A DNA stretch of 64,000 nucleotides from an uncultured archaeon (lineage in GTDB: Archaea; Aenigmatarchaeota; Aenigmatarchaeia; QMZP01): NCBI GenBank assembly GCA_964555875.1, contig CAZKUD010000004.1:3580-67579 (forward strand), written 5' to 3'. Each line of letters starts with the position of its first letter. Position 1 is the first letter of the stretch. Shown in pieces: positions 2,616-57,100 of the stretch. The notes under the pieces are model-generated. The model saw nothing but the letters and a program-made list of their open reading frames with translations, was not told where the DNA came from and did no database searches. Both the position numbers and the translations under genes were made by a program.

Positions 2616-2819
2616 TTACTTCTTCTCAGAGAGGGTGTCGACCCTCTGCTCGAGCAGGGCCAGGCTGCCGGAGATGTCCTCCAGCATTATGGCCAACTTG
2701 TCCACCCAGGCGGCCACTATCTTCACGTCAAGGCTGTCCGCCTTGTCGTTTATCTCCTGCCTGAGCGCCCCCAGGTCGCTCTTGAACTCCTCGAATGATG
2801 TTATTGCCATAAGCATCAC
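2616..2819 (-). CDS. Small coiled-coil protein (67 aa), start overlaps trpS stop
   Basis: ORF directly downstream of trpS with a 4-nt overlap. Heptad-like sequence. No family recognised. Confidence 0.4.
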   Translation of the reverse strand: MMLMAITSFEEFKSDLGALRQEINDKADSLDVKIVAAWVDKLAIMLEDISGSLALLEQRVDTLSEKK

Positions 2820-17202: not shown

Positions 17203-18903
17203 CTATTTGTCCCCCTTTCCCTTTTGTATCTTATAGAGGGCCCTTATCCTGTCCAGGCTGTCAGCCTGCTGGGGGCCCTTGTCCTTCCTGAGCCTGACGA
17301 ACCTAGGGAACCTAAGCGCCCAGCCGCTCGAGTAGGTGGGGCTCTTCTGTATCTCCTCGTATGCCACCTCCACCACCACCTTGGGCCTTATGGCGACCTG
17401 GTTTCCCTTCTCGCTCTCTACCAGGGGCTTCAGTATTTCTGTCAGCCGCTTAAGGGTGACCCCCCCTTCTGTCTCCTTCTCCTTGAGGCCTGTCCCCAGC
17501 ATGCCGCACTCCAGGAACTTGCCTGTCCCGGGCTCCCTGCATCCGAGCACGAACGAGCCCAGCCAGCCTGTCCTCTTTCCCGTGCCCCAGGCGGCCCCTA
17601 TAATGACTAGGTCCAGGTTCTCCATGACAGGCTTGACCTTCAGCCAGCCGCCTGCTACCCTCCTTCCAGGGACGTACAAGGCGTCCAGGTTCTTCACTAT
17701 CAGGCCCTCCTGGCCCGAATCCAGGGCCGACTTGTAGAACTTCTCTGCCTTCTCCAGGTCCTTTGTCCTGAGCTGCTTGGCGAACTGGAACCTGCCCTCT
17801 ATCGGCCTGACTATCCTCTTGAGCTCCTCCAGCCTCTTCTCCAGCGGGGCGTCGAACAGGCTCTTGCCCTCCACATAGACCGCATCGAACAGGTTCATCT
17901 GGACAGGTATCTCCTTTGCCGCCTTATCGACCCCGTGCTTCCTCTTTATCCTGGTGGACAGCATCTGGAACGGCATCGGCCTCTTCGTCTTCGGGTCTAT
18001 GGCCAGCAATTCCCCCTCTATTATCGCGTCCTTCGCCCTTATGCCCCTCTTGGCCAGGTCCACCAGGTCAGGGAACGCCTTCGTGACGTTCTCAAGCCTT
18101 CTTGTGAATATGGATATCTTGTCGCCCTTCTTGTGTATCTGGGCCCGCATGCCATCGTATTTGTACTCCATTGCCGCGTGCTCGTAGGCCCCCAGGGCAG
18201 ACTTCAGGTCTGGCGCCTTCTCTGCCAGGAGCACTATTATGGGCCTGCCTATCTCCATCCTGAGCCTCTTCAGTCCTTTCTCCCCCTTCTCCTTGGCTAT
18301 CCTGGCTATCTCGCTGTAGTCAGGGTACAGGTTCCAGCCTGACTCCACTGCCTTCACGTCTATTCCAAAGGCGTCTGATATGGCGTCACGCACTATGCCC
18401 TCTGCCACGCCTATCCTGAGTTCCTCCAGGACTGTCCTTACTATGTACCTGGCCTCCTTCGGGCCTGCGTGCGCAAGCAGCTCCACGATGAGGTTCATCT
18501 TCCTGTCCTGGCTGCCTGACTCTGCCTGCCTGGCTATGGCCTGCAGGTTCTTGAACACGAAATCGACAGTGAGCTCCTTCTTCATGAGGGTCCTCTGCCT
18601 CTTCTTGCCCTTCAGCCATTCGGCTGTCTTTCCCAGGTCGCCCATCTCATTGAACTTCCTGGCGACATCAGAAGGCTTCATGCCTATCGATTTCGATATC
18701 GCCCTTATCATGAGCTGGTTGGCCACCCCCATCTTGTCGTCTGACCAGTTAGGGAAGGGCCTTCCCATGACGAGCAGCACCAGTTGCGGCAGCTGGCCTG
18801 TAGGGGCTGATTTCAGGAGCTTGGATATGATGTCCCTCTTGGCCAGCTTGGCGCTGGTCTTCTCCAGCTCCTCATAGATGTCGGCCAGCCTTGAATACAG
18901 CAT
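17203..18903 (-). CDS. lig: ATP-dependent DNA ligase
   Basis: Adenylation motif KYDGMRAQIH (KxDG), OB-fold region. 566 aa. Confidence 0.9.
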   Translation of the reverse strand: MLYSRLADIYEELEKTSAKLAKRDIISKLLKSAPTGQLPQLVLLVMGRPFPNWSDDKMGVANQLMIRAISKSIGMKPSDVARKFNEMGDLGKTAEWLKGKKRQRTLMKKELTVDFVFKNLQAIARQAESGSQDRKMNLIVELLAHAGPKEARYIVRTVLEELRIGVAEGIVRDAISDAFGIDVKAVESGWNLYPDYSEIARIAKEKGEKGLKRLRMEIGRPIIVLLAEKAPDLKSALGAYEHAAMEYKYDGMRAQIHKKGDKISIFTRRLENVTKAFPDLVDLAKRGIRAKDAIIEGELLAIDPKTKRPMPFQMLSTRIKRKHGVDKAAKEIPVQMNLFDAVYVEGKSLFDAPLEKRLEELKRIVRPIEGRFQFAKQLRTKDLEKAEKFYKSALDSGQEGLIVKNLDALYVPGRRVAGGWLKVKPVMENLDLVIIGAAWGTGKRTGWLGSFVLGCREPGTGKFLECGMLGTGLKEKETEGGVTLKRLTEILKPLVESEKGNQVAIRPKVVVEVAYEEIQKSPTYSSGWALRFPRFVRLRKDKGPQQADSLDRIRALYKIQKGKGDK

Positions 18904-32922: not shown

Positions 32923-35067
32923 GTGGTTGGGATAGCCGGTAAGTTTTACATCACGACAGCCATTGACTACGTCAATGCGAAGCCGCACCTTGGGCATGCG
33001 TACGAGAAGCTGGCAGCTGACACGATAGCCAGGTGGCACAGGCTTAAGGGGGAGGACGTGCTCTTCCTGACAGGGACAGACGAGAACGCCCAGAAGAACG
33101 TGCAGGCTGCAGAGAAGGCAGGCAAGCCTGTCAAGGAGTTCATAGACGATGTCGTGAAGAACTTCCTGAACCTGTGCAGGGTGTACAACATCTCATATGA
33201 CGATTTCATCAGGACCACAGAGGACAGGCACCACCAGGTGACCAGGTCCCTCTTCCAGAAGATGCACGACAGCGGGGACATCTACAGGGGGCATTATGAG
33301 GGCATATACTGCTACGGCTGCGAGGCCTTCTACCTGGAGAAGGACCTGAAGGGCGGATGCTGCCCTGTGCATAAGACCAAGCCTGTGGTCATAAAGGAGG
33401 AGGCGTACTTCTTCAAGCTGAGCAAGTACGAGAAGAGGCTGCTGGACTTCTACAGGAAGCTGCCTGACAACGTGCTTCCGAAGAGCAGGAAGAACGAGAT
33501 GCTGAACAGGATAGGAGAGGGCCTGAGGGACCTCTGCGTGAGCAGGCAGAAGGTGGAATGGGGGGTGAAGGTGCCTTTCGATGAGAACCACAGGGTGTAC
33601 GTCTGGTTCGATGCCCTCATCAACTACATATCAGCACTGGGGTGGCCTAAAGGGGAGAGGTTCAGGAAGTACTGGCCGGCTGACATACACATGATAGGCA
33701 CCGATATCAACTGGTTCCATTCCGTCATATGGCCCGCCATGCTGATGTCGGCGGGGATAGAGCCCCCTAAAACAGTGTTCGTGCACGGCATGATTACGTC
33801 AGAAGGCGAGAAGCTAAGCAAGACCAGGGGCATAATAGTGGACCCATTCGACCTGGTCGAAAGGTATGGGCTGGACCAGGTGCGTTACTTCCTCCTAAGG
33901 GCAGGCCCGTTCGGCGAGGAGATAGACTACACTGAAGAGGCGATAGTGGGCAGGATAAACGGCGAGCTTGTGGCCGACTTGGGCAACCTACTGAACAGGG
34001 CCGTGACACTGGCAGAGAAATACAAGGGAGAGATAAAGGGCAAGCCTGAGCTGGACAGCGGCCTGGGACTTGAGAAGCTCTCCCTCCACATGGACAGGCT
34101 CGAGCTGCACCATGCGCTGGAGGAGCTCTGGAGGTACATGGGCATCTGCAACAAGTACATCAACGACAGGGAGCCCTGGAAGCTGGAAGGGGATGAGCTC
34201 TCGAACGTGCTCTACAACCTGCTCGAGGCCCTGAGATGCATAGCGATTCTCATAACCCCCTTCATGCCAGGGACAGCCGGGAAGATGAACGAACAGCTTG
34301 GGGTGAAGCCGGGCAAGCTGGCTGACTGCAAGTTTGGGCCCTGGGAGGGCAGTGTCAGGAAGGGCGGGCACCTGTTCGAGAAGGTCGAGTTCAAGAAGAA
34401 GGAAGGGAAGGCGAAGGAGATATCGGTCAACGTCACCCCTGAGGCCCAGAAGCTCGGGATAAAGGTCAGGGCAGCCGTAATAACGGGCGTGAAGGTGAAG
34501 AGGAAGCAGTCAAGCCTGGAGAAGCTCAAGAAGGACGAGGTGGGGCTGACAGACCTGGACGCCATAGGGAAATCCAAGGAGATCGAGGGCTACAGGCTGC
34601 TTTACGAGAAGGTCGGGGCCAAGGTGGAGAATCCGGTTGCCCACCTTGCCGGCATAGTCAAGAAGGCAGGCAAGCTGCCCACCATCAACACTGTGGTCGA
34701 TTCCTATAATATAGTGGCCCTCAGGAAGCGCCTGTCAGTGGGTGCCCATGACCTGGACAGGATACAGGGCAACGTCAATTTCAAGATAACCGACGGCAAG
34801 GAGTCCTGGACTCCCCTGGGGGAGGACAGGCCAAAGGCTGTCCCGGAAGGCGAGTATGCCTGCGTGGACCAGGCCAAGGTGCTGTGCAGGATGGACATCA
34901 AGCAGGGAGACCAGACCAAGATAACCGACAGGACGAAGAACATATTTGTCTATGTCCAGGGCAACCCCAACACGCCTGACGACTATCTCAAGCAGGCCCT
35001 GGAGGAGATAATAACCAACATCACCCGGTTCTGCGGCGGGAAGGCCGTGATTTCTGAGCCTATATAA
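32923..35067 (+). CDS. metG: Methionyl-tRNA synthetase with a C-terminal B3/4-like domain
   Basis: HIGH (KPHLGHAYE) and KMSKS (KLSKTRG) motifs, MetRS zinc knuckle CYGCEAF...CCPVH. C-terminal 200 aa (INTVVDSYNIVALRKRLSVGAHDLDRIQGNVNF...) resembles the PheT B3/4 domain rather than the usual EMAP-like tRNA-binding domain. Confidence 0.85.
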   Translation: MVGIAGKFYITTAIDYVNAKPHLGHAYEKLAADTIARWHRLKGEDVLFLTGTDENAQKNVQAAEKAGKPVKEFIDDVVKNFLNLCRVYNISYDDFIRTTEDRHHQVTRSLFQKMHDSGDIYRGHYEGIYCYGCEAFYLEKDLKGGCCPVHKTKPVVIKEEAYFFKLSKYEKRLLDFYRKLPDNVLPKSRKNEMLNRIGEGLRDLCVSRQKVEWGVKVPFDENHRVYVWFDALINYISALGWPKGERFRKYWPADIHMIGTDINWFHSVIWPAMLMSAGIEPPKTVFVHGMITSEGEKLSKTRGIIVDPFDLVERYGLDQVRYFLLRAGPFGEEIDYTEEAIVGRINGELVADLGNLLNRAVTLAEKYKGEIKGKPELDSGLGLEKLSLHMDRLELHHALEELWRYMGICNKYINDREPWKLEGDELSNVLYNLLEALRCIAILITPFMPGTAGKMNEQLGVKPGKLADCKFGPWEGSVRKGGHLFEKVEFKKKEGKAKEISVNVTPEAQKLGIKVRAAVITGVKVKRKQSSLEKLKKDEVGLTDLDAIGKSKEIEGYRLLYEKVGAKVENPVAHLAGIVKKAGKLPTINTVVDSYNIVALRKRLSVGAHDLDRIQGNVNFKITDGKESWTPLGEDRPKAVPEGEYACVDQAKVLCRMDIKQGDQTKITDRTKNIFVYVQGNPNTPDDYLKQALEEIITNITRFCGGKAVISEPI

Positions 35068-35080
35068 GTATTTTGGTGAT

Positions 35081-35229
35081 TCAGTATATATTGTGTAGAA
35101 TATAGATTGGGAATACTATTTTGTAGGACACATACACTTATATAGGCGCTCAGACTAATTACATATTGCGCTTGTCATACTATATATTGTGTGCCAGACA
35201 CGAGAAATACACAATTTCCTTGTATTTCC
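35081..35229 (+). promoter_or_regulatory. nrdD upstream control region: two NrdR-box-like palindromes (TCAGTATATATTGTGT 35081-35096; ATACTATATATTGTGT 35177-35192; centres 96 bp apart) plus inverted repeat GAAATACAC-N9-GTGTATTTC-like at 35203-35229
   Basis: Match to the bacterial NrdR-box consensus acaCwAtATaTwGtgt (15/16 and 13/16). AT-rich 200-bp leader. SD GGGAGGGAG 7 nt before the ATG. Confidence 0.4.
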
Positions 35230-35269
35230 GTGTTACTGGCCAGTGACAAAGGCATGGGAGGGAGATGAT

Positions 35270-37525
35270 ATGAAGTGTCCATTTTGCGGAAAAGAGGAAA
35301 CCAAGGTCCTTGACAAGAGGGAATCAGGGGTATCCAACAGGCGGAGAAGGGAGTGCCTGAGCTGCAAGAAGAGGTTCACCACTTACGAGAAGATAGGCGG
35401 CCTTCTGACAAAGGTCCGCAAGAGGGACGGAAAGGAAATAGATTTCAGCCAGGACAGGATCACTGAAGCCATCTGGGCATCTGCCAGGGAGGTAGGAGGC
35501 AAGGACAAGGAGCTCGCCAAGAAGCTGTCCGACAGGGTGGTGCAGGTCCTGGAGGAGAAGTTCGGCGGCTACACTGTGCCGACTGTCGAGCAGATACAGG
35601 ATCTTGTGGAGAAGGTGCTGGTCGAGGGCGGGCACTACGAGACAGCCAAGGCCTACATACTGTACAGGAAGAACAGGGAGAAGCTGAGGGAGGCCAAGTC
35701 CACGATGGTGGACGTCGAGAACACCATAAGCTCATACCTGGACAGGAGGGACTGGAGGGTCAAGGAGAACAGCAACGAGGCCTTCTCGTTTTCCGGCCTC
35801 CTGCTCTACACTGCAGGCAAGGTGATGGCCAACTACAACCTGAACGAGATATACACGCCGGCCATAGCCGAGGCGCACAGGAAGGGCTACATGCACGTGC
35901 ACGACCTCTCCCACGGGGTCATAGGCTACTGCTGCGGTCATTCGCTCAAGAACCTGCTCCTTACAGGGTTCGGGGGCGTGCCCAACAAGGTGGACGCCAA
36001 GCCAGCCAAGCACCTGGACGTGGTGGTGCACCACATGATAAACTACATAGGCTGCCTGCAGATGGAGTTCGCAGGCGCGCAGGCTTTCAACTCCGTGGAC
36101 ACCCTGCTCGCGCCCTTCGTGAAGGAGGACAGCCTGACATACAAGCAGGTCAAGCAGAACATGCAGAAGCTCGTCTTCTCGCTGAACGTGCCCTCCAGGT
36201 GGGGGTCACAGTACCCGTTCTCCAACCTGACTTTCGACTGGGTGCCTCCAGAGGACCTCAAGGGCCAGAAGGCCATAGTCGGCGGGAAGGAACTGGATTA
36301 CAACTACGGCGACTGCCAGGCAGAGATGAACATGATAAACAGGGCCTTCATAGAGGTCATGCTCGAGGGAGACGCGAACGGGAGGATATTCACCTTCCCC
36401 ATACCGACCTACAACATAACCAGGGACTTCGACTGGGACTCTGAGAACGCCAAGCTGCTCTTCGAGCTCACGGCCAAGTACGGGACACCCTACTTCCAGA
36501 ACTATGTGGGCTCCAACCTGAACCCAAATTCGGTCAGGGCCATGTGCTGCAGGCTGAACATGGACCTGACGCAGCTAATGAACAGGCCGGGAGGCATGTG
36601 GTCGATGGGCGACAGCACAGGCTCCATAGGCGTGGTCACCATAAACCTTAACAGGCTTGCGTACGAGGCCAAGGACAAGGACGAGTTCCTAGAGAAGATA
36701 AAGCACTACATGATGCTTGCGAAGACGTCCCTGGAGACCAAGAGGAGGGTGGTGGAGAACAACATGAGGAACGGCCTGATGCCCTATACCAAGAGGTACT
36801 TGGGCACATTCAAGAACCACTTCTCAACCATCGGCCTGTGCGGCATGAACGAGGCCTGCCTCAACCTGATAGGAAAGGACATAAGCTCGCCCGAAGGGAA
36901 GGAGCTCACGATAGACACCCTCAAGTTCATGAGGGAGAAGACGAGGGAGTTCCAGACAGAGACAGGAAGCCTCTACAACCTGGAGGCGACCCCTGCCGAA
37001 TCGACCGCATACAGGTTCGCCAGGCTGGACAAGAAGATGTACCCTGACATAAAGGTGTCCGGCACCGAGGAGACGCCGTACCTCACCAACTCGACGTACC
37101 TGCCTGTCGGGCACACAGACGACGTGGTGCAGGCGCTGGAGCACCAGAACGACATACAGCCATTGTACACTGGAGGGACGATGTTCCATACGTTCCTTGG
37201 GGAGAAGGTCTCCAGCGGGGAGTCGGCCAAGATGCTGGTCAAGAAGATAGCGGTGAACACCAGGCTGCCGTACTTCTCGATAACCCCGACCTTCAGCATA
37301 TGCCCGACCCACGGTTACGTGAGGGGCGAGCATTTCAAGTGCCCACAGCCGAACGGCGGCTCAGAGCCCTGCGGGAAGAACTGCGAGGTGTTCTCCAGGG
37401 TGGTCGGTTACTTCAGGCCAATCCAGAACTGGAACGACGGAAAGCAGCAGGAGTTCAAGGAGAGGCTGGAATACCAGGAGAACAAGGCCTTCTCGAGGGA
37501 CTTCTCCTTCACTAAGGCCACATAG
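35270..37525 (+). CDS. nrdD: Anaerobic ribonucleoside-triphosphate reductase (class III) with an NrdR-like zinc-ribbon + ATP-cone N-terminus
   Basis: N-terminus MKCPFCGKEETKVLDKRESGVSNRRRRECLSCKKRFTTYEKI (NrdR-type Zn ribbon), ATP-cone, C-terminal glycyl-radical motif RVVGYFRPIQNWNDGKQQE. The ORF track starts upstream at 35189. Confidence 0.9.
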   Translation: MKCPFCGKEETKVLDKRESGVSNRRRRECLSCKKRFTTYEKIGGLLTKVRKRDGKEIDFSQDRITEAIWASAREVGGKDKELAKKLSDRVVQVLEEKFGGYTVPTVEQIQDLVEKVLVEGGHYETAKAYILYRKNREKLREAKSTMVDVENTISSYLDRRDWRVKENSNEAFSFSGLLLYTAGKVMANYNLNEIYTPAIAEAHRKGYMHVHDLSHGVIGYCCGHSLKNLLLTGFGGVPNKVDAKPAKHLDVVVHHMINYIGCLQMEFAGAQAFNSVDTLLAPFVKEDSLTYKQVKQNMQKLVFSLNVPSRWGSQYPFSNLTFDWVPPEDLKGQKAIVGGKELDYNYGDCQAEMNMINRAFIEVMLEGDANGRIFTFPIPTYNITRDFDWDSENAKLLFELTAKYGTPYFQNYVGSNLNPNSVRAMCCRLNMDLTQLMNRPGGMWSMGDSTGSIGVVTINLNRLAYEAKDKDEFLEKIKHYMMLAKTSLETKRRVVENNMRNGLMPYTKRYLGTFKNHFSTIGLCGMNEACLNLIGKDISSPEGKELTIDTLKFMREKTREFQTETGSLYNLEATPAESTAYRFARLDKKMYPDIKVSGTEETPYLTNSTYLPVGHTDDVVQALEHQNDIQPLYTGGTMFHTFLGEKVSSGESAKMLVKKIAVNTRLPYFSITPTFSICPTHGYVRGEHFKCPQPNGGSEPCGKNCEVFSRVVGYFRPIQNWNDGKQQEFKERLEYQENKAFSRDFSFTKAT

Positions 37526-37555: not shown

Positions 37556-38248
37556 ATGGACATCAAAGGCATACAGAAGACATCGATGATAGACTACCCC
37601 GGGAAGATGAGCGCCATCATATTCCTTCCCAAGTGCACGTTCAGGTGCGGCTTCTGCCACAACGTCGACCTGGTCACGGGCTGGGAGAAGCTGGACACAA
37701 TAGACGAGAGGGAGGCACTCAACTTCCTGAAGGACAGGAAGAAATGGCTTGACGGCATCGTCATTACCGGCGGGGAGCCGACCGTCCACAGGGACCTTCC
37801 GGATTTCATAAGGAAGGTCAAGGAGCTGGGATACCTGGTCAAGCTCGACACGAACGGCTCCAACCCCTACATGCTGGAGGACCTGATAAAGGAGGGGCTG
37901 ATAGACTACATAGCGATGGACATAAAGGGCCCGAAGGAACGCTATGACGAGATATGCAGGGTGAAGGTGAACATCAAGCTGATAGAGATGTCAGTCGAGC
38001 GGATACGGGAGTCCGGCCTGGATTATGAGTTCAGGACCACCGCCGTACCGGGGCTGATAACAGTGGAGGACATTGCCAAGATAGGGGAATGGATGAAGGG
38101 GTCCAGGCTCTATTGCATACAGCAGTTCAGGCCCATGAGGACGCTTGACGGCAGCCTGCAGAACAGCAGGCCTTACAAGCCCGAGGAACTCCAGAAGATG
38201 GCAGAGGTTGCGGGCCCTTTCTTTGATAAGGTGGAAATAAGGCAATGA
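37556..38248 (+). CDS. nrdG: Anaerobic RNR activating protein (radical SAM)
   Basis: CTFRCGFCHN (CxxxCxxC), GGEPT. Confidence 0.85.
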   Translation: MDIKGIQKTSMIDYPGKMSAIIFLPKCTFRCGFCHNVDLVTGWEKLDTIDEREALNFLKDRKKWLDGIVITGGEPTVHRDLPDFIRKVKELGYLVKLDTNGSNPYMLEDLIKEGLIDYIAMDIKGPKERYDEICRVKVNIKLIEMSVERIRESGLDYEFRTTAVPGLITVEDIAKIGEWMKGSRLYCIQQFRPMRTLDGSLQNSRPYKPEELQKMAEVAGPFFDKVEIRQ

Positions 38249-39240
38249 AGATAGTCATCTGCGGCAGCATGAAGCTGGCCAAGGAGATGAACGAGGCCAG
38301 GAGGAAGCTGGAGGGGATGGGGCACGAGGCCATTTGCCCGCCTGACACAGACCATTGCGTGGCCAACCCTGACCTGAACGAGGAAGTCGAATACTGCATA
38401 GAGCATGATGTCATAAGGGAGCATTTCAGGCTAATAGCAGACGCTGACGCAGTGCTCACCCTCAACCACACGAGGAAGGGCATACCCGGGTATGTGGGAA
38501 GCAACACCCTGATGGACATGGCCATAGCATACCACCTGAAGAAGAGGATATTCCTTCTTTACCCCATACCTGACATGGACTGCGCGACAGAGCTCAGGAT
38601 AATGCAGCCCACCGTACTTGACGGCGACATGTCCAGGATACCGTTCGCCAGGTCCAGGGTGGTGCTGGCATCCAAGTCTCCCAGGAGGATGCAGCTGCTT
38701 GAGCAGCTCGGGGTCGACTTCGAGATAGTCGCGAGCAAAGCAGACGAGAGCAGCATACAGGATGACGACCCCACGGAGATGGTCAAGAAGCTGGCGGAGC
38801 TGAAGGCAAGGACCGTGGCGGAGAAGGTCGGCAAGGGGCCGGTCATAGTGTCAGGCGACAGCCTCACCTTCATGGACGGGAAGCCGATAGGAAAGCCCAA
38901 GGCCGCAACAGGGGACGAGGCGAGGGAAAGGGCCAGGGAGATGCTGAGGACGTTCTCAGGCAGGTCCCATGACGTCTATTCAGGCCTGTGCGTGCTCAAC
39001 ACGGAGACGGGAAAGATGCTGACGGACGCTGTCAGGACTGTCGTGACCTTCAGGGAACTGACCGAGAAGGACATAGAGGAGTGCGTGAAGGAGAAGAGGA
39101 TATACGGGGGCGCAGGCGCCTATGTGCCTGAGACATGGCCCAGGTGCTTCCAGGGGCTGGAAGGCTCGCACACCAATGTGCTGGGGACACCCACAGAGAG
39201 GCTGATACCCATGCTCAGGGAAGCGGGGGTGGAGATATGA
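38245..39240 (+). CDS. Fusion protein: N-terminal LOG/nucleoside 2-deoxyribosyltransferase/DNPH1-like Rossmann domain + C-terminal Maf nucleoside-triphosphate pyrophosphatase
   Basis: N-domain ADAVLTLNHTRKGIPGYVGSNTLMDMAIAY resembles the xDAxIALPGGxGTxEE core. C-domain VVLASKSPRRMQLLEQLGVDFEIVASKADES is a Maf signature. ATGA overlap with nrdG. Confidence 0.7.
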   Translation: MKIVICGSMKLAKEMNEARRKLEGMGHEAICPPDTDHCVANPDLNEEVEYCIEHDVIREHFRLIADADAVLTLNHTRKGIPGYVGSNTLMDMAIAYHLKKRIFLLYPIPDMDCATELRIMQPTVLDGDMSRIPFARSRVVLASKSPRRMQLLEQLGVDFEIVASKADESSIQDDDPTEMVKKLAELKARTVAEKVGKGPVIVSGDSLTFMDGKPIGKPKAATGDEARERAREMLRTFSGRSHDVYSGLCVLNTETGKMLTDAVRTVVTFRELTEKDIEECVKEKRIYGGAGAYVPETWPRCFQGLEGSHTNVLGTPTERLIPMLREAGVEI

Positions 39241-44212: not shown

Positions 44213-46927
44213 ATGGGCGCCAATCTCCCACCCAATGCACTTGCCCTGCTGAAGCAGAGGTACCTCCTGAAGGATGACAGGGGAAGGGTCAGGGAGACGC
44301 CTGAGCAGATGTTCAGGAGGGTCGCAAGGGCTGTCGCCAAGGCCGAGGGCAGGAACGCGGGGAGGTTCGGGAAGGAATTCTTCGGCATGATGAGCAGGCT
44401 GGAGTTCCTGCCAAACAGCCCGACCATGTTCAATGCGGGCACCAAGCTGGGCCAGTTGTCGGCATGCTTCGTGCTGCCCATAAACGATTCGCTGGTCAGC
44501 ATATTCGACGCGGTCAAGCACACTGCACTGATAGAGCAGAGCGGGGGCGGGGTCGGCCTGTCCTTCTCGAGGATCAGGCCGAAGGGCTCAATGGTGAAAT
44601 CTTCCAGGGGCCAGGCCAGCGGGCCTGTCTCGTTCATGAGGGTGTTCGACACTGTCACAGGCGTGATAAACGCGGGCGGCAAGAGGAGGGGCGCCATGAT
44701 GGGCGTCCTGGACGTGGGCCATCCCGACATAATGGATTTCATAACATCCAAGGAAGGCTATGACGTGCTCAGCAATTTCAACATATCGGTGGCGGTCACA
44801 GATTCCTTCATGGAAGGCGTCAGGAAAGGGAACAGGAAGGTATGGGACGCCATAGTGGAGGGCGCATGGAAGGGCGGGGACCCCGGGCTGCTTTTCATGG
44901 ACGAGATAAATAGGGGGAACCCGACCAGGAAGCTGGGAAAGGTGGAGACCACCAACCCCTGCGTTCCTTCCCATACATGGATAATGACAGGCGGCGGGCC
45001 GAGGCTGGTGGACGATATTATAAACAACAGTGTTGGCATAGGCGTCAATGGCTGCTCCTACCAGACCGCAGGTTTCTTCAGGACGGGGAGGAAAGAGGTG
45101 TTTAAGATTACAACCAAAGAGGGCCTGGAGGTGGAGGCAACTGCAAGCCATCCCTTCCTAAAGGCCGAAAAGATAACCAGATACAAGACGTATCCCAAAT
45201 GGACGGCTCTTGGCGAGCTGAAGCGCGGGGACAGGCTCGTTTTGAGCGAGCATAATGGAAATAGATGGGACGGGGATTTGTCCAAGGATGATGGTTACCT
45301 CTTGGGCCTGCTCTTTGGCGACGGCACCATGACAAAGAGGAATGCCATACTCTACTCCTGGTCAACAAGCAAGGGGGACGAAGGCGTAAGGAAGGCTGTC
45401 ATGGATATAGCCAAAAAGATAAGGCACAGAAGGGACTTCATAGGATGGTGTTACAACAAAAGAACTAAGAGGTATTCACTGAGCCTGGCATATATTGATG
45501 GTCTAATCCGGAGGCTGGGTGTAGGAAGAAAGATAATAAATGGCCCCATTGAAAGGGAATCTTATGATTTTTACGTTGGGTTCATAGGGGGCCTGTTTGA
45601 TGCCGATGGCTCTGTGCAGGGCGACCAGAGGAAGGGCGTTTCCATAAGGCTCTCCCAGAGCAATGTGCCAAACCTGAAAGCCGTACAGAGGATGCTATTA
45701 AGATTGGGAATAATGTCAAAATTATACCAAAACAGGAGGCCTGGGGGCTTAAAAAGACTGCCAGACGGGCGCGGTGGAAAAAAGGATTACAAAATAAAGG
45801 CCCAGCACGAGCTTGTCATATCAAACAGGGGTGTCCTTAAGTTCTTGAATTTGATAGGGTTCAGGAACATTAAAAAGAAGGAGAGGCTTGATGCCCTAGT
45901 TAAGGGCTACAGGAGAACTATTAACAAAGATATGTTTGTGGCCACAATAGAAAGCATCGTCCCCCTTGGGATTAAGGAGGTCTTTGACATTAATGTCCCG
46001 GTTGCGCATTGTTTTGACGCAAATGGATTCTTAGTTCACAATTGCGGGGAAGCCGTGCTGCATCCCTATGAGAGCTGCAACTTGGGCAGCATAAACCTCA
46101 CCAGGATGGTAAGCGGAGGGAAGGTGGACTGGGAAAGGCTCAGGAAGACTGCCAGGCTGGCGGTAAGGTTCCTGGACGACGTGATAGACGTCAACAGGTA
46201 CCCGATGCCCCAGATAGAGGCCATGACCAAGGCCAACAGGAGGATAGGCCTGGGGGTGATGGGCTTCGCGGACATGCTGATAATGCTGGGCATACCGTAT
46301 GACTCTGAAGAGGCCCTGAGGACGGCAGGGGAGCTCATGAGGTTCATAACCGAAGAGTCCCACAGGATGTCAGAGGAGCTGGCAAAGGAGAAGGGACCGT
46401 TCAGGAACATGGCCAAGAGCTCCTGGAAGAGGCCCATGAGGAACGCGACCACCACCACAATAGCGCCAACCGGCAGCATATCCATCATAGCCGGGGTGTC
46501 CTCAGGCATAGAGCCCCTCTTCGCTGTCAGCTACGTTAGGAGCGTCCTGGGGGGCAGGAAGATGGCAGAGACCAACCGGCTTTTCAGTGAGATGGCAAAG
46601 AGCAGGGGGTTCCACTCCAAGAAGCTCATGTCAGAGGTTGCCAGGAAGGGCACTGCCAGGGGCGTGAAGGGGATCCCGAAGGACGTCCAGAGGCTGTTCG
46701 CCACGGCCCTGGAGATAAGCCCGGAATGGCACGTAAGGATGCAGGCCGCCTTCCAGAAGCACACCGACAATGCTGTGTCTAAGACCGTCAACTTCCCGAA
46801 GGGCGCCAGCCGGTCAGACATAGACAGGGTCTTCATGCTGGCGCACAGGCTGAGGTGCAAGGGGATAACAGCATACAGGTACGGCTCCAGGAAGGAGCAG
46901 GTCCTGACATGCGGGGAGTGTGAGTGA
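44213..46927 (+). CDS. nrdJ: Adenosylcobalamin-dependent ribonucleotide reductase (class II, NrdJ-like) interrupted by one intein
   Basis: Extein motifs TTNP|CGE at the active-site Cys and C-terminal redox pair CGECE. Extein is about 543 aa after removing the 361-aa intein. Confidence 0.75.
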   Translation: MGANLPPNALALLKQRYLLKDDRGRVRETPEQMFRRVARAVAKAEGRNAGRFGKEFFGMMSRLEFLPNSPTMFNAGTKLGQLSACFVLPINDSLVSIFDAVKHTALIEQSGGGVGLSFSRIRPKGSMVKSSRGQASGPVSFMRVFDTVTGVINAGGKRRGAMMGVLDVGHPDIMDFITSKEGYDVLSNFNISVAVTDSFMEGVRKGNRKVWDAIVEGAWKGGDPGLLFMDEINRGNPTRKLGKVETTNPCVPSHTWIMTGGGPRLVDDIINNSVGIGVNGCSYQTAGFFRTGRKEVFKITTKEGLEVEATASHPFLKAEKITRYKTYPKWTALGELKRGDRLVLSEHNGNRWDGDLSKDDGYLLGLLFGDGTMTKRNAILYSWSTSKGDEGVRKAVMDIAKKIRHRRDFIGWCYNKRTKRYSLSLAYIDGLIRRLGVGRKIINGPIERESYDFYVGFIGGLFDADGSVQGDQRKGVSIRLSQSNVPNLKAVQRMLLRLGIMSKLYQNRRPGGLKRLPDGRGGKKDYKIKAQHELVISNRGVLKFLNLIGFRNIKKKERLDALVKGYRRTINKDMFVATIESIVPLGIKEVFDINVPVAHCFDANGFLVHNCGEAVLHPYESCNLGSINLTRMVSGGKVDWERLRKTARLAVRFLDDVIDVNRYPMPQIEAMTKANRRIGLGVMGFADMLIMLGIPYDSEEALRTAGELMRFITEESHRMSEELAKEKGPFRNMAKSSWKRPMRNATTTTIAPTGSISIIAGVSSGIEPLFAVSYVRSVLGGRKMAETNRLFSEMAKSRGFHSKKLMSEVARKGTARGVKGIPKDVQRLFATALEISPEWHVRMQAAFQKHTDNAVSKTVNFPKGASRSDIDRVFMLAHRLRCKGITAYRYGSRKEQVLTCGECE
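44960..46042 (+). mobile_element. Intein with LAGLIDADG homing endonuclease, inserted at the NrdJ TNP/CGE site
   Basis: Begins with Cys (CVPSHTW), ends HN followed by Cys. Two LAGLIDADG blocks LLGLLFGDG and FIGGLFDADG. Locally lower GC. Confidence 0.8.
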
Positions 46928-49126: not shown

Positions 49127-49270
49127 AACTATCTATAACCGTAACCTTTTTAAACCCTTATTTTATCTATTGGTATTGAACCGCATATAAATGCGATAAA
49201 ACACTGGTCATAATTGGCTCTTTCTCAGAACAGAGTTAACAATGATGAACAGAAAAAAGGAAGTGATAAA

Positions 49271-51103
49271 ATGAACGAAAAAACAAAAAGCGCTAGCAAT
49301 AAGTCTAGCAGAAAGAAGGTCGTCCCGGACACGAGCGTGCTCATCCTGGGGACGATATCGGGCCGGATAAAATCCGGCAAGCTGAAGGGCGCAAGGATCC
49401 TCATTCCCAAGGCAGCCATAGACGAGCTGCAGGCCCAGGCAAGCAGGGGTCACGAGACCGGCTTCAAGGGGCTTGAGGAAGTCAAGGCCATAAGGGCGCT
49501 GGGAAAACAGAAGGGCATAGAAGTGGAATTCCCGGGCACGCGGCCGACCCTAGAGGAGATACACCTGGCCAAGAAGGGCAGGATAGACGCCCTGATAAGG
49601 GACGTTGCCGCCAAGAGCGGCGGGAAGCTGCTTACTGCCGATTATGTTCAGGCCCTTGTGGCCGAGGCAGAGGACGTTGCAGTGGAATACGTCCCACAGC
49701 CCGTCAAGAAGAAGGTCAGCATAGAGTCCTTCTTCAGGGAGGGGATGCAGTCCCTCCATATGAAGGTGGGGGTGCCTCCCATGGCCAAGATAGGCAGGCC
49801 TGGCGAGGTGAAGCTCGTGCAGCTCAAGAAGCAGAAGGTGGACGAGGACGGGCTGAAGGCAATGATAGACGAGATAGTCTACCAGGCCAAGAAGAAGGAC
49901 GATTCCTTCATAGAGATAGGGAGGAACGGAGCCACTGTCGTGCAGATGGGGGAGTACAGGATATCCATAACCAGGCCCCCTTTCTCTGACGCCATGGAGC
50001 TGACAGCTGTCAGGCCCATAGCCAAGGTGAAGCTGGACGACTACCAGCTGCATGAGGAGCTGAAGGAAAGGTTCGCCAAGAAGTCCCAAGGTGTCCTGAT
50101 AACAGGACCGCCTGGGGAGGGCAAGACGAGCTTCGCCTCGGCCCTGGCCAAGTTCCTGAGCAGCCAGGACAAGGTTGTCAAGACATTCGAGCAGCCCAGG
50201 GACCTGCAGGTAGGCCCTGAGGTCACCCAGTACGGCCCCCTGGAGGGGGACTGGGTCAAGTCAGCGGAGATTCTCCTGCTGGTGAGGCCCGACTACACCA
50301 TATTCGACGAGATCAGGAAGACATCCGACTTCAGGATATTCGGTGACATGAGGCTGGCTGGTGTCGGCATGATTGGGGTGGTGCACGCCACGTCCCCCGT
50401 GAGCGCAATACAGCGTTTCATAGGGCGCGTTGAGCTGGGCATGATACCCAACATAATAGACACCGTCATCTTCGTGGAGGCAGGCAGGGTCTCCAAGGTG
50501 TACGAGATGGTGCTGAGCGTGAAGGTGCCTTCAGGCATGACCGAGGCCGACCTGGCCAGGCCTGTGGTGGAGGTGAAGGACTTCGCCACCAAGAAAGCGG
50601 AGTATGAGATATACACGTTCGGGAACGAGAACGTCATCATACCTGTCAAGGAGGGCGCCAAGGGCTCGCCTGTCAATGAGCTCGCCAAGCAGAGGGTAGA
50701 GCAGGAGCTCAGGAGGTACGACCCCTCTGTGGAGGTGGAGGTCGTCGGCGCCAACAAGGTGGTGGCCCGGGTCCGCAATGAGTCCATGGCCCGGCTCATA
50801 GGAAGGAAGGGCGAGAACATAAGCTCCCTGGAGAAGAGGCTGGGCATCTCAATTGATGTCCAGCCCAGGGAAGCCACAATGAAGCAGGGACTGAAATGGA
50901 GGCACCAGGAATCCGGCGCCTTCGTGAACATCCTTGTGGACCCTGAGCTCACAGGAGAGCAGGTGGACGTCTACAGGGCTGACGAGTACATATTCTCCCC
51001 CTACGTGGGGAAGGGCGGGGCGATAAAGGTCAAGAAGCGCTCCCCGCTCGGCAGCAAGATAATGGGAGCGATATACTCCCGAAGACTGAGAGTGATGGCA
51101 TAA
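49271..51103 (+). CDS. PIN-domain / PilT-PhoH-like ATPase / C-terminal KH domain protein (COG1855-like)
   Basis: PIN-like N-terminus, Walker A GPPGEGKTS, KH-like RLIGRKGENISSLEKRLGISIDV. The ORF track starts at 49214; the ATG at 49271 has an SD-like AGGAAGTGA. Confidence 0.75.
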   Translation: MNEKTKSASNKSSRKKVVPDTSVLILGTISGRIKSGKLKGARILIPKAAIDELQAQASRGHETGFKGLEEVKAIRALGKQKGIEVEFPGTRPTLEEIHLAKKGRIDALIRDVAAKSGGKLLTADYVQALVAEAEDVAVEYVPQPVKKKVSIESFFREGMQSLHMKVGVPPMAKIGRPGEVKLVQLKKQKVDEDGLKAMIDEIVYQAKKKDDSFIEIGRNGATVVQMGEYRISITRPPFSDAMELTAVRPIAKVKLDDYQLHEELKERFAKKSQGVLITGPPGEGKTSFASALAKFLSSQDKVVKTFEQPRDLQVGPEVTQYGPLEGDWVKSAEILLLVRPDYTIFDEIRKTSDFRIFGDMRLAGVGMIGVVHATSPVSAIQRFIGRVELGMIPNIIDTVIFVEAGRVSKVYEMVLSVKVPSGMTEADLARPVVEVKDFATKKAEYEIYTFGNENVIIPVKEGAKGSPVNELAKQRVEQELRRYDPSVEVEVVGANKVVARVRNESMARLIGRKGENISSLEKRLGISIDVQPREATMKQGLKWRHQESGAFVNILVDPELTGEQVDVYRADEYIFSPYVGKGGAIKVKKRSPLGSKIMGAIYSRRLRVMA

Positions 51104-53776: not shown

Positions 53777-54184
53777 TCATCCCTTTCTGATTTCCCGTAT
53801 GATCCTGCTAGTGCTGTATCCAGGAAGCCTTTTCTTTATCCTGACAACCTTGCATTTTATGCCCATTGCCTTCAGGCGTTTTCTTATTTCATTATCGTCC
53901 TGGTCGAAGCCCAAGGCTATCACGTCTGGTTTCTCCTCCCTTACCGCCTTCATCATGTCTGACGGGTGGCCCACCCTCACCTTGTCGACGAACCCCAGGC
54001 TGCCCACCATATCCTTCCTGTCCTTTGCAGAGAACGAGAGCCTGCCGCTCTTTCTGCCGGCTGTCCTGTCATGGGCCACCACCACCACCAGGCTGGTGCC
54101 CAGCCTCCTGGCGGCCTTCAGGAAGAATATGTGCCCCGGATGGAGCAGGGAGAACACGCCGCCGACAAGGACCTTCCTTCCCAT
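53777..54184 (-). CDS. ribL: Cytidylyltransferase-family nucleotidyltransferase, archaeal FAD synthase RibL-like
   Basis: GGVFSLLHPGHI (HxGH) motif, 135 aa. Similar to archaeal RibL/PPAT-type enzymes. Confidence 0.6.
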   Translation of the reverse strand: MGRKVLVGGVFSLLHPGHIFFLKAARRLGTSLVVVVAHDRTAGRKSGRLSFSAKDRKDMVGSLGFVDKVRVGHPSDMMKAVREEKPDVIALGFDQDDNEIRKRLKAMGIKCKVVRIKKRLPGYSTSRIIREIRKG

Positions 54185-57100
54185 CAGCCCCTCCTTACCG
54201 TGAGCGCGTATCCGGAACCGGTCTTGTTGCTCTCCAGGATAAGCTTGTGGGTCCCTGGGTTGAGTATCAGGTCGCTCTGCACGTCTATGTTGCCGTAGCC
54301 CAGCAGGCTCTTGACCGTGCTGTAAAGTCCCAGCCCGTAGCCGAAGCTCGGGGAAGGCTTCTCCAGGAACTGCTGGGACTTTATCAGGCCCATCTTCTCC
54401 TCTATCGCCCTCCAGTCACCCTTCGTGAAGACCAGGAAGGCCAGCGGGTTGTCCTTGCCCAGGGCGACTGTCATGGTGTGGGAGGAGGGGGTCTTGTCGT
54501 ATCTCAGGAACTCGGGATTCTGGTAGGCGAAGACCAGGCCGTAAAGGACCCCGCTCCCGTAGCTGGCGAGGTAATAGCTGGGCGGGCTGTTCCAGACAGT
54601 CCCCCACTGGCTGGCTGGCTTGGCGCCTGCCCCGGGCACGTAAACCATGTTGCTGGTGTTGTTGATGGTCAGGCTTATGGTCAGGTTGCCCACGGCCGCG
54701 CCTGACACTGTCAGGGTGTCGTTCTCTGACTTGCTGTCATACCCTCCCCTATGGCATGTGACGTTCCAGCCGTATGTCCCGTGGCTGCTGAATGACCTGC
54801 TGAAGGTGTAAAGGGCTGTGGGTATGCTGTAGGACATCTGGTACTGCCCGTCGCTGAAGCTTATGTTGCAGCTGCTGCTCGTTAGCGCGCTGCCGCCTGA
54901 GGTGTAGTTGGCGTAGAAGCCGACAGACTGCCCGACCCTTATGGTCTGCCCGCCGCCCGCAGGGTCTCCGCTGTCCCATATGCTCAGTAAGGACGCCTGG
55001 GTGTCGCATATGTTGTCTATCCCGTCAGCGTCATCGTCCTGCCCTGTGTTAACCTGGTTCGGGCACATGTCGCACACCATGTTCGGGTCCCCGTAGAGGC
55101 TCGTGTTCACGCCCTCTGTCCAGCCGTCCTGGTCGAAGTCTGCCTTGGCGCAGGTCCAGCCCGTCCCCCTGCTGGTCAGGCTGTCGCAGACATAGAAGAC
55201 CTTCTTGTAAGAGCTCACCTGGTCGCCGTCCTCGTCCGTCACGTTCACGTAGGCCCTGTACATGCCATCAGAGTTGGGGGCGGGCACGGTCCCGTTGCAC
55301 TCCACGGTCGAGCCCGAGCCCCCTGTCTTCGTCAGGGTCCCTGACCAGACAACCGAGCCAGAGGAGTCCTCTATGTAGGCGTTGCATGCAGCGGACTGGA
55401 AGTTTCCGCTGTCCGCTGTCCTGAAGCTGGCTCCTATCAGCGCGCCGTCAGTGCTGCGGTAGAATGGCTCTGTCATGTTTATGGACGCTGCTGTCGGGAC
55501 AGGCATGACGTTTATCCCTATCGTCCTGCTCCCCCCATTGGTGCCCGTGTTGTCTGCGCCGTCCGTTGCGTTGGCGGAGAGCTGGTAGCTCCCGTCATCG
55601 TCAGTGTAGGTGGTGGCGTACAGGCAGTTCCCGTCGCTGGACTGCACGACCGTCCCGTCAAGGTCGAAGGCGCACCTGCATATGCCTGACGGGTCGCTGG
55701 ACGGTATCGCCCTGTACCTTATGGTGCCCCCGTATGGTATGTTCACGAAGTTCGAGGAGTTTATCGGCCCGACCTCTACTGAGGAGACGGTCGGCGGCGT
55801 GTTCTCATAGACTGTCGGGCTCCTGGTGCCTGCCCCATTGTCCGGGGAGCCGTCCGAAAGCGAGTTGGTTATGGAGATGGAGTATGTCTTTGCCTGTGGC
55901 GAGGACACCCCTCCACAGTTCAGGGTGACATCAAACCCGTTCAGCGGGTTCCCTGCTCCCACCTGGCCCGGGTCATGGTCTATCCTTCCGACCTGGTCCT
56001 GGGTGGACACGTACCTGAGCTTGTTGGCGTTGGTGCCGCTCATCGTGCAGTTGGAAGCGTTGTACGGGAAGTACCTGGTCGGGTCTGTGGCGTCGCCCAG
56101 GATTATGGAGATCGAATTGTAGCTGCCTGAGCCCACCACCCTTACCGTGTAGTTGGTGAAGACATAGTGCCTCTGCAGGTGTCCCACGGAAACCGTTGTC
56201 CCGCCTACGGCTGACGGGCTTGTCGTGTAAGGTATGGTGGTGCAGCCCACAGTCGACCAGCCCTGGCTCGGGCACGCGCCCACGCCGTAGCAGTCGCTGT
56301 CGGCGCAGTCATAGTAGCCGTCGGCGTCATTGTCCAGGCCGTCCGTGCAGCTGGTTTCGGTCCCGTATTCGCACCATCCCACTCCGTTGCAGTCCACGTC
56401 AGCGCAGTCTGCCCCTCCCTGCGCGTCATTGTCGAAGCCGTCGAAGCAGCTGGTTTCGGTCCCGTATTCGCATGCCTCCCCGTTGGCCGTGGAGCCTATC
56501 TCCCCTGAGCAGTTTATGTCCGCGCAGTCTGTTATTCCTGTCGGCATCATGTGGTCATTGTCCAGGCCGTCCGAGCAGGATGACCAGGTGTAGTTCTCCT
56601 CTCCCGGGCAGGGGCCGCATGAGCCGAACTTCCTGTTGCAGTCAGGGTCGGTGCAGTCAGTGCCGCCGTTGGGCCAGCCCTGGGAGTTGTCCCCGTCGTC
56701 ATCATAGTTGTTGTTGCAGAACTGGTAGTGCTGGGCGAGGTTGAACTCGTATGGGTAGCAGACCTCGTTCGGGTTGGCCGGGTTGGCCACCCCCAGGCAG
56801 TCCACGTCAGCGCAGTCTATGTTGGCCGCAGGACCTGTGTATGTCATGGAGGGGTTGTCCAGGTCATTGTCTATGTTGTCGAAGCACTGGCTGTCATTAA
56901 CCTGCCCGTACCTGTTGTGCCTCTCATTGGTCGGGCACGTGTCGGTCCCGTTCGTCTGGCCCCTGCAGTCATAGTCCCTGCAGTCCGAGCCGCCGGTCTG
57001 GCTGCAGCTCCTGCTGTTGGAGCCGTCGTCATAGTCATTGTTTATGCCGTCGAAGCACCAGCCAGCCAAATTGCTCTCGTTGGACGGGCAGGGGTCTGAA

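Follow-up and report, generated by a model that had tools for sequence, protein, structure and literature searches.

The methionyl-tRNA synthetase (MetRS) encoded in a 64,000-nucleotide stretch of DNA from an uncultured archaeon of the Aenigmatarchaeota (GenBank assembly GCA_964555875.1, contig CAZKUD010000004.1, positions 3,580 to 67,579; this whole stretch is called the window in the following) carries an additional C-terminal domain of the B3/4 fold. By sequence comparison and structure prediction this tail is a complete module of the type of CtdA, the canavanyl-tRNA-Arg deacylase. We consider it reasonably probable that the tail is an appended post-transfer editing domain, which removes a neutral analogue of methionine from tRNA-Met. 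This role is supported indirectly by the conservation of the tail, by a pocket which appears to match the partner enzyme and by gene linkage. To our knowledge, the textbook MetRS uses pre-transfer proofreading only and has no post-transfer editing domain, and the lysyl- and arginyl-tRNA synthetases (LysRS and ArgRS) are regarded likewise.

The MetRS gene and its C-terminal module

The gene (positions 32923 to 35067, plus strand) is an uninterrupted open reading frame with a GTG start codon, which codes for 714 amino acids followed by a stop codon. The body of the protein is a bona fide MetRS. The product scores 610 bits with the NCBIfam equivalog model for methionine--tRNA ligase (NF008900, cutoff 598), the core up to about residue 465 matches Pfam tRNA-synt_1g with an E-value of 2.1e-104 and in addition Anticodon_3, and the motifs HLGH and KLSKT are located at residues 22 and 297. 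According to Pfam, the motifs and the secondary structure of a full-length model, residues 1 to 465 (32923 to 34317, plus strand) comprise the Rossmann catalytic body and the helical anticodon-binding domain; a motif search located the zinc knuckle of the core (CYGC/CCPVH) at residues 130 to 150.

That an error in assembly or gene calling merged MetRS with an adjoining B3/4 gene is effectively refuted, although split arrangements are known from other genomes (in locus L063 the two genes are separate, and L072 appears frameshifted). The reading frame in the window runs without interruption, and the same 714-residue product was obtained where genes had been called independently, on four public metagenome contigs (two JGI samples; longest contig 119,989 bp). 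Moreover, a search with the full-length protein yielded more than 40 distinct clusters of fused orthologs down to 44% identity, which originate from metagenome-assembled genomes labelled Diapherotrites/Iainarchaeota, Undinarchaeota or unclassified archaea.

The sequence-only reading had assigned positions 34390 to 35067, corresponding to residues 490 to 714 plus the stop codon, to a domain resembling B3/4 of PheT, and had quoted peptides at residues 588 to 625 and 655 to 682. The B3/4 fold of these roughly 215 extra residues was borne out at a level far above chance. Pfam B3_4 (PF03483) matches residues 573 to 703 of MetRS with an E-value of 2.7e-19 and 69.9 bits (gathering cutoff 29.3), the tail searched alone yields 1.8e-20, and an AlphaFold2 model of the tail based on 64 homologs reaches a predicted local distance difference test (pLDDT) of 97.1 and a predicted template modelling score (pTM) of 0.92. 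The resemblance to PheT stands for the fold but not for the nearest relative, which is CtdA. A phmmer search of the PDB sequences returned the CtdA structures 9f7e and 9mkl as best matches of the tail (E-values of 1.1e-9 and 9.9e-9) with an alignment covering residues 17 to 218 of the 231 residues of CtdA, whereas chains of the beta subunit of phenylalanyl-tRNA synthetase (PheRS) followed with 2.6e-3 or worse. Using the tail model, Foldseek ranked CtdA 9f7e first (E-value 3.5e-17, TM scores of 0.85/0.81 over 227 columns) and the B3/B4 domains of PheRS-beta second with TM scores of about 0.6; the Foldseek probability was 1.00 for CtdA and for about 30 PheRS-beta chains. Judged by Pfam, the AlphaFold2 model, Foldseek and phmmer, residues 502 to 714 (34426 to 35064, plus strand) are an entire CtdA-type B3/B4 deacylase module including the N-terminal helical insertion and not a fragment of PheT.

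The B3/B4 domain of PheT belongs to the same fold and Pfam family and shares the conserved asparagine (E. coli N254 corresponds to CtdA N105; PMC12449066). It edits in cis and after transfer as part of a synthetase, and the same role is proposed here for the MetRS tail. The tail differs in that the other beta-subunit domains are missing, the pocket residues are different and the host is a class I enzyme. It is very improbable that the tail is a PheRS-type editing domain which hydrolyses Tyr- or m-Tyr-tRNA-Phe in trans and was fused to MetRS by chance. The Pfam classification, weak matches to the pheT models and the resemblance of the segment GAHDLDRIQG to GTHDLDTIQG of eukaryal PheRS-beta would be in line with such an origin. 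Against it, the NCBIfam pheT models reach just 27 to 30 bits with the tail (cutoff of TIGR00472, 402.65), the structural similarity is clearly higher to CtdA, and the editing-site histidine of PheT is not kept, as Gly607 is located at the position of E. coli His265 (H265 corresponds to CtdA G116; PMC12449066). In addition, no locus examined showed a linkage to PheRS.

The module is connected to the core by a weakly conserved linker (residues 466 to 501 approximately, 34318 to 34425, plus strand), a coil which contains the Lys-rich segment KKKEGKAKE. In the full-length model both bodies are confident and the pTM is 0.71; residues 466 to 501 show no secondary structure, and the mean pLDDT of residues 491 to 500 is 62. 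The coil and the drop in pTM fit a tether, which suggests a tethered, mobile module. The identity of orthologs to the window protein agrees with these boundaries. Across the orthologs it ranges from 25 to 65% in the linker and from 49 to 85% in the core; values for core, linker and tail are 85, 65 and 78% in P0002, 61, 25 and 52% in P0004, and 53, 50 and 53% in P0009. By these alignments the conservation of the tail falls little short of that of the catalytic core, while the linker decays.

The EMAP/Trbp111-type tRNA_bind domain (PF01588), which mediates dimerisation in canonical MetRS, is found in many MetRS proteins at the same place, behind a linker after the anticodon-binding domain, and has likewise a tRNA-directed role, but its OB fold is unrelated to B3/4. 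Pfam gave no match to tRNA_bind at E<=1 in the MetRS protein, and a tblastn search with two tRNA_bind domains across the whole window gave none either. The claim that B3/4 stands here instead of an EMAP-type domain is correct for the window protein; it does not extend to the family, in which many relatives carry both domains.

Pocket residues and partner synthetases

To compare the pocket residues we aligned 40 fused tails and 62 free-standing homologs (102 sequences in total) with CtdA and with a second B3/4 domain of the window, located at the N-terminus of its tryptophanyl-tRNA synthetase (TrpRS). In CtdA the residues Y104, N105, E118 and E191 are catalytically relevant (PMC12268091); the exchanges N105A, G116H/W and Q173G lead to inactive enzyme, and C166 tunes the specificity (PMC12449066). 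Four segments of the tail, all encoded on the plus strand, contain the equivalent positions. In the motif LPTINTVVDSYN (residues 585 to 596, 34675 to 34710) Y595 and N596 correspond to CtdA Y104 and N105 and are kept in 101 and in all 102 of the homologs, respectively. The motif GAHD (residues 607 to 610, 34741 to 34752) provides G607, equivalent to CtdA G116, and H609 at the position of CtdA E118, which is histidine in 88 of the 102 sequences and tyrosine or phenylalanine in the remainder. In the motif CRMDIKQ (residues 655 to 661, 34885 to 34905) C655 corresponds to CtdA C166 and Q661 to CtdA Q173 (kept in 89 and 95 sequences), while N170, W171 and R172 of CtdA are replaced by D658, I659 and K660; position 659 is isoleucine or valine among the homologs. 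The motif YVQGN (residues 677 to 681, 34951 to 34965) contains Y677 at the position of CtdA I189, Q679 at that of E191 (glutamine in 96 of 102) and an invariant G680. A C-terminal CGG motif (residues 704 to 706, 35032 to 35040, plus strand) is additionally present in at least 90% of the fused and free-standing homologs. Of 83 fused and free-standing sequences, 47 agree at every position of the 14-residue pocket signature YNGHDCRDKQYQGN.

The tail has thus the whole-protein architecture and the size in common with CtdA (9f7e, 9mkl; PMC10018355, PMC12449066, PMC12268091), and the equivalents of Y104/N105, G116, C166, R167 and Q173 are kept. The differences are an overall identity of about 20%, the fusion to a synthetase in place of a free-standing protein, and the pocket exchanges E118 to His, E191 to Gln, N170 to Asp, W171 to Ile/Val, R172 to Lys and I189 to Tyr. 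As judged from the alignment, the hydrolytic Tyr-Asn dyad is retained and the two acidic pocket residues of CtdA are exchanged for neutral ones.

Using a profile of the module, a search of 1.84 billion cluster representatives identified 465 clusters at E<=1e-30, a number which rose to 2325 at E<=1e-10. Among the best 150 clusters 112 were free-standing and 21 contained a MetRS part. In public annotation the sequences of this family appear as methionine--tRNA ligase, 'PheT-related protein' or 'B3/4 domain-containing'. The top matches included modules on other synthetases as well, whose hosts were confirmed with curated hidden Markov models: class II LysRS (P0294, P0314, P0356), class I LysRS (P0275 and additional fragments) and ArgRS (P0261, 1124 amino acids, with two tandem N-terminal modules). 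The modules of these four LysRS proteins are C-terminal, and P0294 contains tRNA_bind and HD domains in addition. The first module of P0261 retains the pocket signature of CtdA (GGEN, N-W-R-Q), as expected of a cis-acting editor of canavanine or arginine analogues.

The pockets differ according to the partner enzyme. In the numbering of the window protein, the MetRS-type modules have His at position 609, Asp at 658, Ile or Val at 659, Lys at 660, Gln at 661 and Gln at 679. The modules of both LysRS classes have Phe or Tyr, Asn, Tyr or His, Arg, Asp and Asp at these positions, and the modules of ArgRS and CtdA have Glu, Asn, Trp, Arg, Gln and Asp or Glu. Since the two unrelated LysRS classes share one signature and ArgRS has that of CtdA, the pocket seems to track the amino acid of the partner and not its fold. 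The same acidic pocket on both LysRS classes is, from these comparisons, a case of convergent recruitment. Given this distribution of the variants over LysRS and ArgRS, it is presumably the amino acid which the modules recognise, and their proofreading would be matched to the partner. Among the indirect arguments for an uncharged, methionine-like substrate of the MetRS tail, this match of pocket and partner is the strongest.

The same data bear on the possibility that the tail is a non-catalytic appendage for tRNA binding or dimerisation, i.e. a degenerate deacylase fold which holds the acceptor arm or dimerises MetRS in place of EMAP/Trbp111. We regard this as rather unlikely. It would explain the location of the tail at the usual EMAP-type position in a protein without EMAP, the Lys-rich linker and the loss of the residues equivalent to E118 and E191, and CtdA itself is dimeric with a basic tRNA-binding surface (PMC12449066, PMC12268091). 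A purely surface-binding domain would however not be expected to keep a buried polar pocket including the Tyr-Asn dyad nearly invariant, nor to vary its pocket residues together with the amino acid of the partner. Furthermore, B3/4 and tRNA_bind coexist in one chain in many relatives.

Distribution, gene linkage and proposed function

To analyse the distribution of the module, we searched the species representatives of GTDB for the motif IN[TKR][VIL]VD[SCI]YN; relatives were detected in 294 species, and the best 80 loci were classified by their arrangement. In the first arrangement a short-core MetRS is fused to B3/4 (about 700 amino acids), as in Ca. Iainarchaeum andersonii, in the complete AR10 genome CP010424 and in Aenigmatarchaeota. 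In the second, found in Woesearchaeota, Bathyarchaeota and Micrarchaeota, an archaeal-type MetRS with zinc knuckle is followed by B3/4 and tRNA_bind (about 900 to 926 amino acids). Because this arrangement carries both domains, B3/4 is no mere replacement of EMAP. The third arrangement occurs in Aenigmatarchaeota and combines MetRS, B3/4 and an AlaX-type domain (tRNA_SAD) in 987 amino acids; in the corresponding locus (L039, JAGVVZ010000010.1, 4459 to 7419) the AlaX-like part behind B3/4 consists of the C-terminal part of alanyl-tRNA synthetase and tRNA_SAD with the motif CGGTHV. In the fourth arrangement the module is a free-standing protein of 213 to 230 amino acids, which was found in Chloroflexia, many Patescibacteria of the candidate phyla radiation (CPR), Nanoarchaeota, Erysipelotrichaceae including the cultured Absicoccus, and Bacteroidaceae. 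Among the free-standing orthologs, those of independent lineages with MetRS, SAM synthetase or methionine biosynthesis in the neighbourhood are 40 to 50% identical and have the 14-residue pocket signature in common.

The two types of MetRS core which bear B3/4 are just 27 to 30% identical to each other; the module was therefore joined to MetRS repeatedly or transferred between the types. Two further fusions were observed. A protein of 387 amino acids (P0245) combines a YbaK/ProX-type editing domain with a MetRS-type B3/4 module, and one of 563 amino acids (P0213) combines a GFO/IDH/MocA oxidoreductase with a B3/4 module whose signature is exactly that of the MetRS type; this last fusion is possibly an artefact of gene calling.

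The neighbourhoods of the free-standing orthologs indicate a linkage to methionine. In a Woesearchaeota metagenome-assembled genome (L063) the free-standing B3/4 gene has an ATGA overlap (GTGAGATGAACG) with the stop codon of a MetRS gene, and in a second locus (L067) a MetRS gene is located 2 kb from the B3/4 gene. In a Pfam census of 83 immediate neighbours, S-adenosylmethionine synthetase occurred twice, in both cases directly upstream on the same strand (L058, Patescibacteria bacterium; L031, Nanoarchaeota archaeon). Cys_Met_Meta_PP was found upstream in two cases, L081 and L084, which represent a single Erysipelotrichaceae lineage, and genes of the SAM-hydrolase, DTW and methyltransferase type were also present. 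A MetY-MetX-MetW cluster adjoins the free-standing ortholog P0175 (L002). Altogether four independent cases of methionine-linked neighbours compare with about 0.4 expected, a rough post hoc estimate which assumes about 6 methionine-related genes in a genome of about 1500 genes, 2 neighbours and 45 loci. The genomic links of the MetRS-type modules are in this way to methionine and not to arginine, which is a further difference from CtdA.

The module could alternatively be an active deacylase with a target that is not set by the methionine side chain, for example a broad or D-aminoacyl-tRNA deacylase or one acting on methionine attached to wrong tRNAs, so that the fusion would be opportunistic. 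Fusions within the wider family do involve several synthetases and also a YbaK-like editing domain, and most free-standing copies do not lie beside methionine genes. However, the signatures differ by partner and converge on both unrelated LysRS classes, and the MetRS-type signature recurs beside MetRS, MetK and methionine-biosynthesis genes in independent lineages. We consider this explanation unlikely.

For the editing of tRNA-Met by the tail the following mechanism is conceivable. MetRS would occasionally load a neutral, methionine-like non-cognate amino acid onto tRNA-Met. The mischarged 3' (CCA) end would swing over in cis, or be recaptured by the tethered module upon release, and would enter the pocket between the B3 and B4 halves; the 35-residue coil should be long enough to bridge the distance between the anticodon-binding domain and the acceptor end. 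There the Tyr595-Asn596 dyad would position a water molecule, leading to hydrolysis of the ester bond, and the specificity for the side chain, with exclusion of methionine, would come from His609, Asp658, Lys660, Gln661, Tyr677 and Gln679. In this way MetRS would gain a post-transfer proofreading step, which canonical MetRS is without. Candidate substrates are norleucine, ethionine, the O-alkyl-homoserines which MetY-type enzymes make, and methionine in hydroxylated or oxidised form. Homocysteine is an unlikely substrate, as it is cleared before transfer and homocysteinyl-tRNA cyclises by itself. CtdA forms dimers (PMC12449066), so that a dimerisation of MetRS by the tail is also possible, a role which the EMAP-type domain has elsewhere. 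We infer the hydrolytic activity, the substrate tRNA-Met, the action in cis or in tethered trans and the dimerisation.

Several observations weigh against an editing function. Canonical MetRS removes homocysteine by cyclisation before transfer, and it is not evident why a post-transfer step should be needed. The module is located at the anticodon end, far from the synthetic site, and the pTM of 0.71 leaves its position unfixed. His and Gln replace the catalytically relevant residues E118 and E191 of CtdA, and given this replacement the chemistry in the MetRS tail may differ or be weaker; the pocket geometry itself is derived solely from the alignment to CtdA. The majority of the free-standing orthologs have uninformative neighbours (as did two of the first three contexts inspected), and the enrichment of methionine genes was estimated post hoc. 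Finally, the nearest tail-less relatives show 65% identity in the core, their MetRS stops at 482 amino acids without any remnant of the tail, and the upstream order of T2SSE ATPase, GT2, a 220-amino-acid protein and MetRS is shared. The tail was therefore gained or lost recently, and these relatives can dispense with it.

In both tail-less loci a gene for a GNAT acetyltransferase of 137 amino acids (L088, 5446 to 5859; L089, 5449 to 5862) overlaps the stop codon of MetRS and is followed by a gene of the eIF-5/eIF-2B family.

A precedent for the protection of tRNA-Met is AlfB, a member of the AlaX family, which hydrolyses (2S,3R)-hydroxymethionyl-tRNA-Met and guards tRNA-Met as a dedicated deacylase from an analogue accepted by MetRS (PMC13149037). 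Unlike the MetRS tail, AlfB has an unrelated fold, is free-standing and is encoded within a proteobacterial biosynthetic gene cluster; as an AlaX-family protein it is ruled out as a homolog of the tail. A further point of comparison is the 'CtdA-2' clade of unknown function from Chloroflexi, Bacillota and archaea, in which N105 and G116 are conserved and other pocket residues differ (PMC12449066). The taxonomic spread resembles that of the orthologs described here (Chloroflexia, Erysipelotrichaceae and archaea). In CtdA-2, compared by its published description, C166 is missing or changed (PMC12449066), whereas the equivalent Cys655 is mostly kept in our alignment. The CtdA papers cover free-standing proteins only and no synthetase fusions (PMC12449066, PMC12268091). 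The shared-domain table of AARS Online names EMAP, GST and WHEP for MetRS and no B3/B4, and in the open-access literature we did not come across any account of B3/4 modules fused to MetRS, LysRS or ArgRS. The fold, the CtdA family and editing by PheRS are already known; it is the synthetase-fused architecture for which no published description was found.

Taken together, the CtdA-like modules may be a set of proofreading domains, each matched to an amino acid, which has so far escaped notice, although we put this wider proposal forward only tentatively. They would have been recruited repeatedly by MetRS (two cores), by both LysRS classes and by ArgRS, with post-transfer editing by the window MetRS against a neutral methionine analogue and the free-standing orthologs acting as a widespread trans-editing factor for tRNA-Met in DPANN, CPR and Chloroflexia. 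If this is true, post-transfer proofreading of tRNA-Met exists in nature, and likewise proofreading for both LysRS classes and ArgRS; it would hint at hitherto unrecognised natural amino-acid analogues which stress small-genome, host-dependent archaea and bacteria, and a function would be assigned to hundreds of proteins annotated as 'B3/4 domain-containing' or 'PheT-related'. Such modules could be used to suppress or tune the incorporation of methionine surrogates in protein engineering. Experiments could start from cultured Absicoccus strains, whose free-standing relative deviates only slightly from the pocket signature.

The TrpRS domain and other features of the window

The sequence-only reading had also described the MetRS tail as a second, independent fusion of the same fold in the window, at the opposite terminus compared with TrpRS. 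This description agrees with our analysis. The TrpRS gene (2816 to 4603, minus strand) was identified with NCBIfam NF008925 (493.6 bits, cutoff 451); besides tRNA-synt_1b the product contains an N-terminal B3/4 domain (residues 1 to about 228, positions 3920 to 4603), which matches Pfam B3_4 with an E-value of 9.1e-11. The TrpRS N-domain is 23% identical to the MetRS tail (tblastn E-value 2.5e-7) and forms a separate deep branch in an unbootstrapped neighbor-joining tree of the domains. A homolog search with this domain returned two proteins only. In all three sequences Met-Leu is found at the position of the Tyr-Asn dyad and Phe at that of Q679, and most pocket residues are changed. From these exchanges the two B3/4 domains of the window probably do not share the same job, and the role of the TrpRS N-domain is probably a different one, perhaps that of a non-hydrolytic derivative. 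An analogous N-terminal appendage of the AlaX-like type is reportedly present in the TrpRS of Plasmodium.

The genes around the window MetRS code for a GT2 glycosyltransferase, GtrA, an orphan protein of 108 amino acids, NrdD, NrdG and Maf and give no functional hint. A promoter and terminator scan around the MetRS gene, which is not built for archaea, gave three sigma-70-like sites (1.8 expected) and no terminators. NrdD, the anaerobic ribonucleotide reductase (35189 to 37525, plus strand), has an N-terminal zinc ribbon of the NrdR type and an ATP-cone; public gene calls begin 27 codons downstream at MKCPFCG. It is followed by the radical-SAM activase (37556 to 38248) and by a Maf-like protein (38245 to 39240, plus strand), in which the Maf domain starts at residue 138 behind an N-terminal extension of 137 amino acids without a Pfam match. 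The gene of a ribonucleotide reductase large subunit (44213 to 46927, plus strand) is split by an intein, which contains a homing-endonuclease domain of the LAGLIDADG type. An open reading frame of 3260 amino acids (54184 to 63966, minus strand) contains NosD/right-handed beta-helix repeats and an Ig-like domain and codes probably for a surface protein. The product of positions 49214 to 51103 (plus strand) combines PIN, a secretion-type ATPase and KH, which is an archaeal-type combination. This protein and an ATP-dependent DNA ligase (17203 to 18903) speak for an origin of the window from a DPANN-like archaeon.

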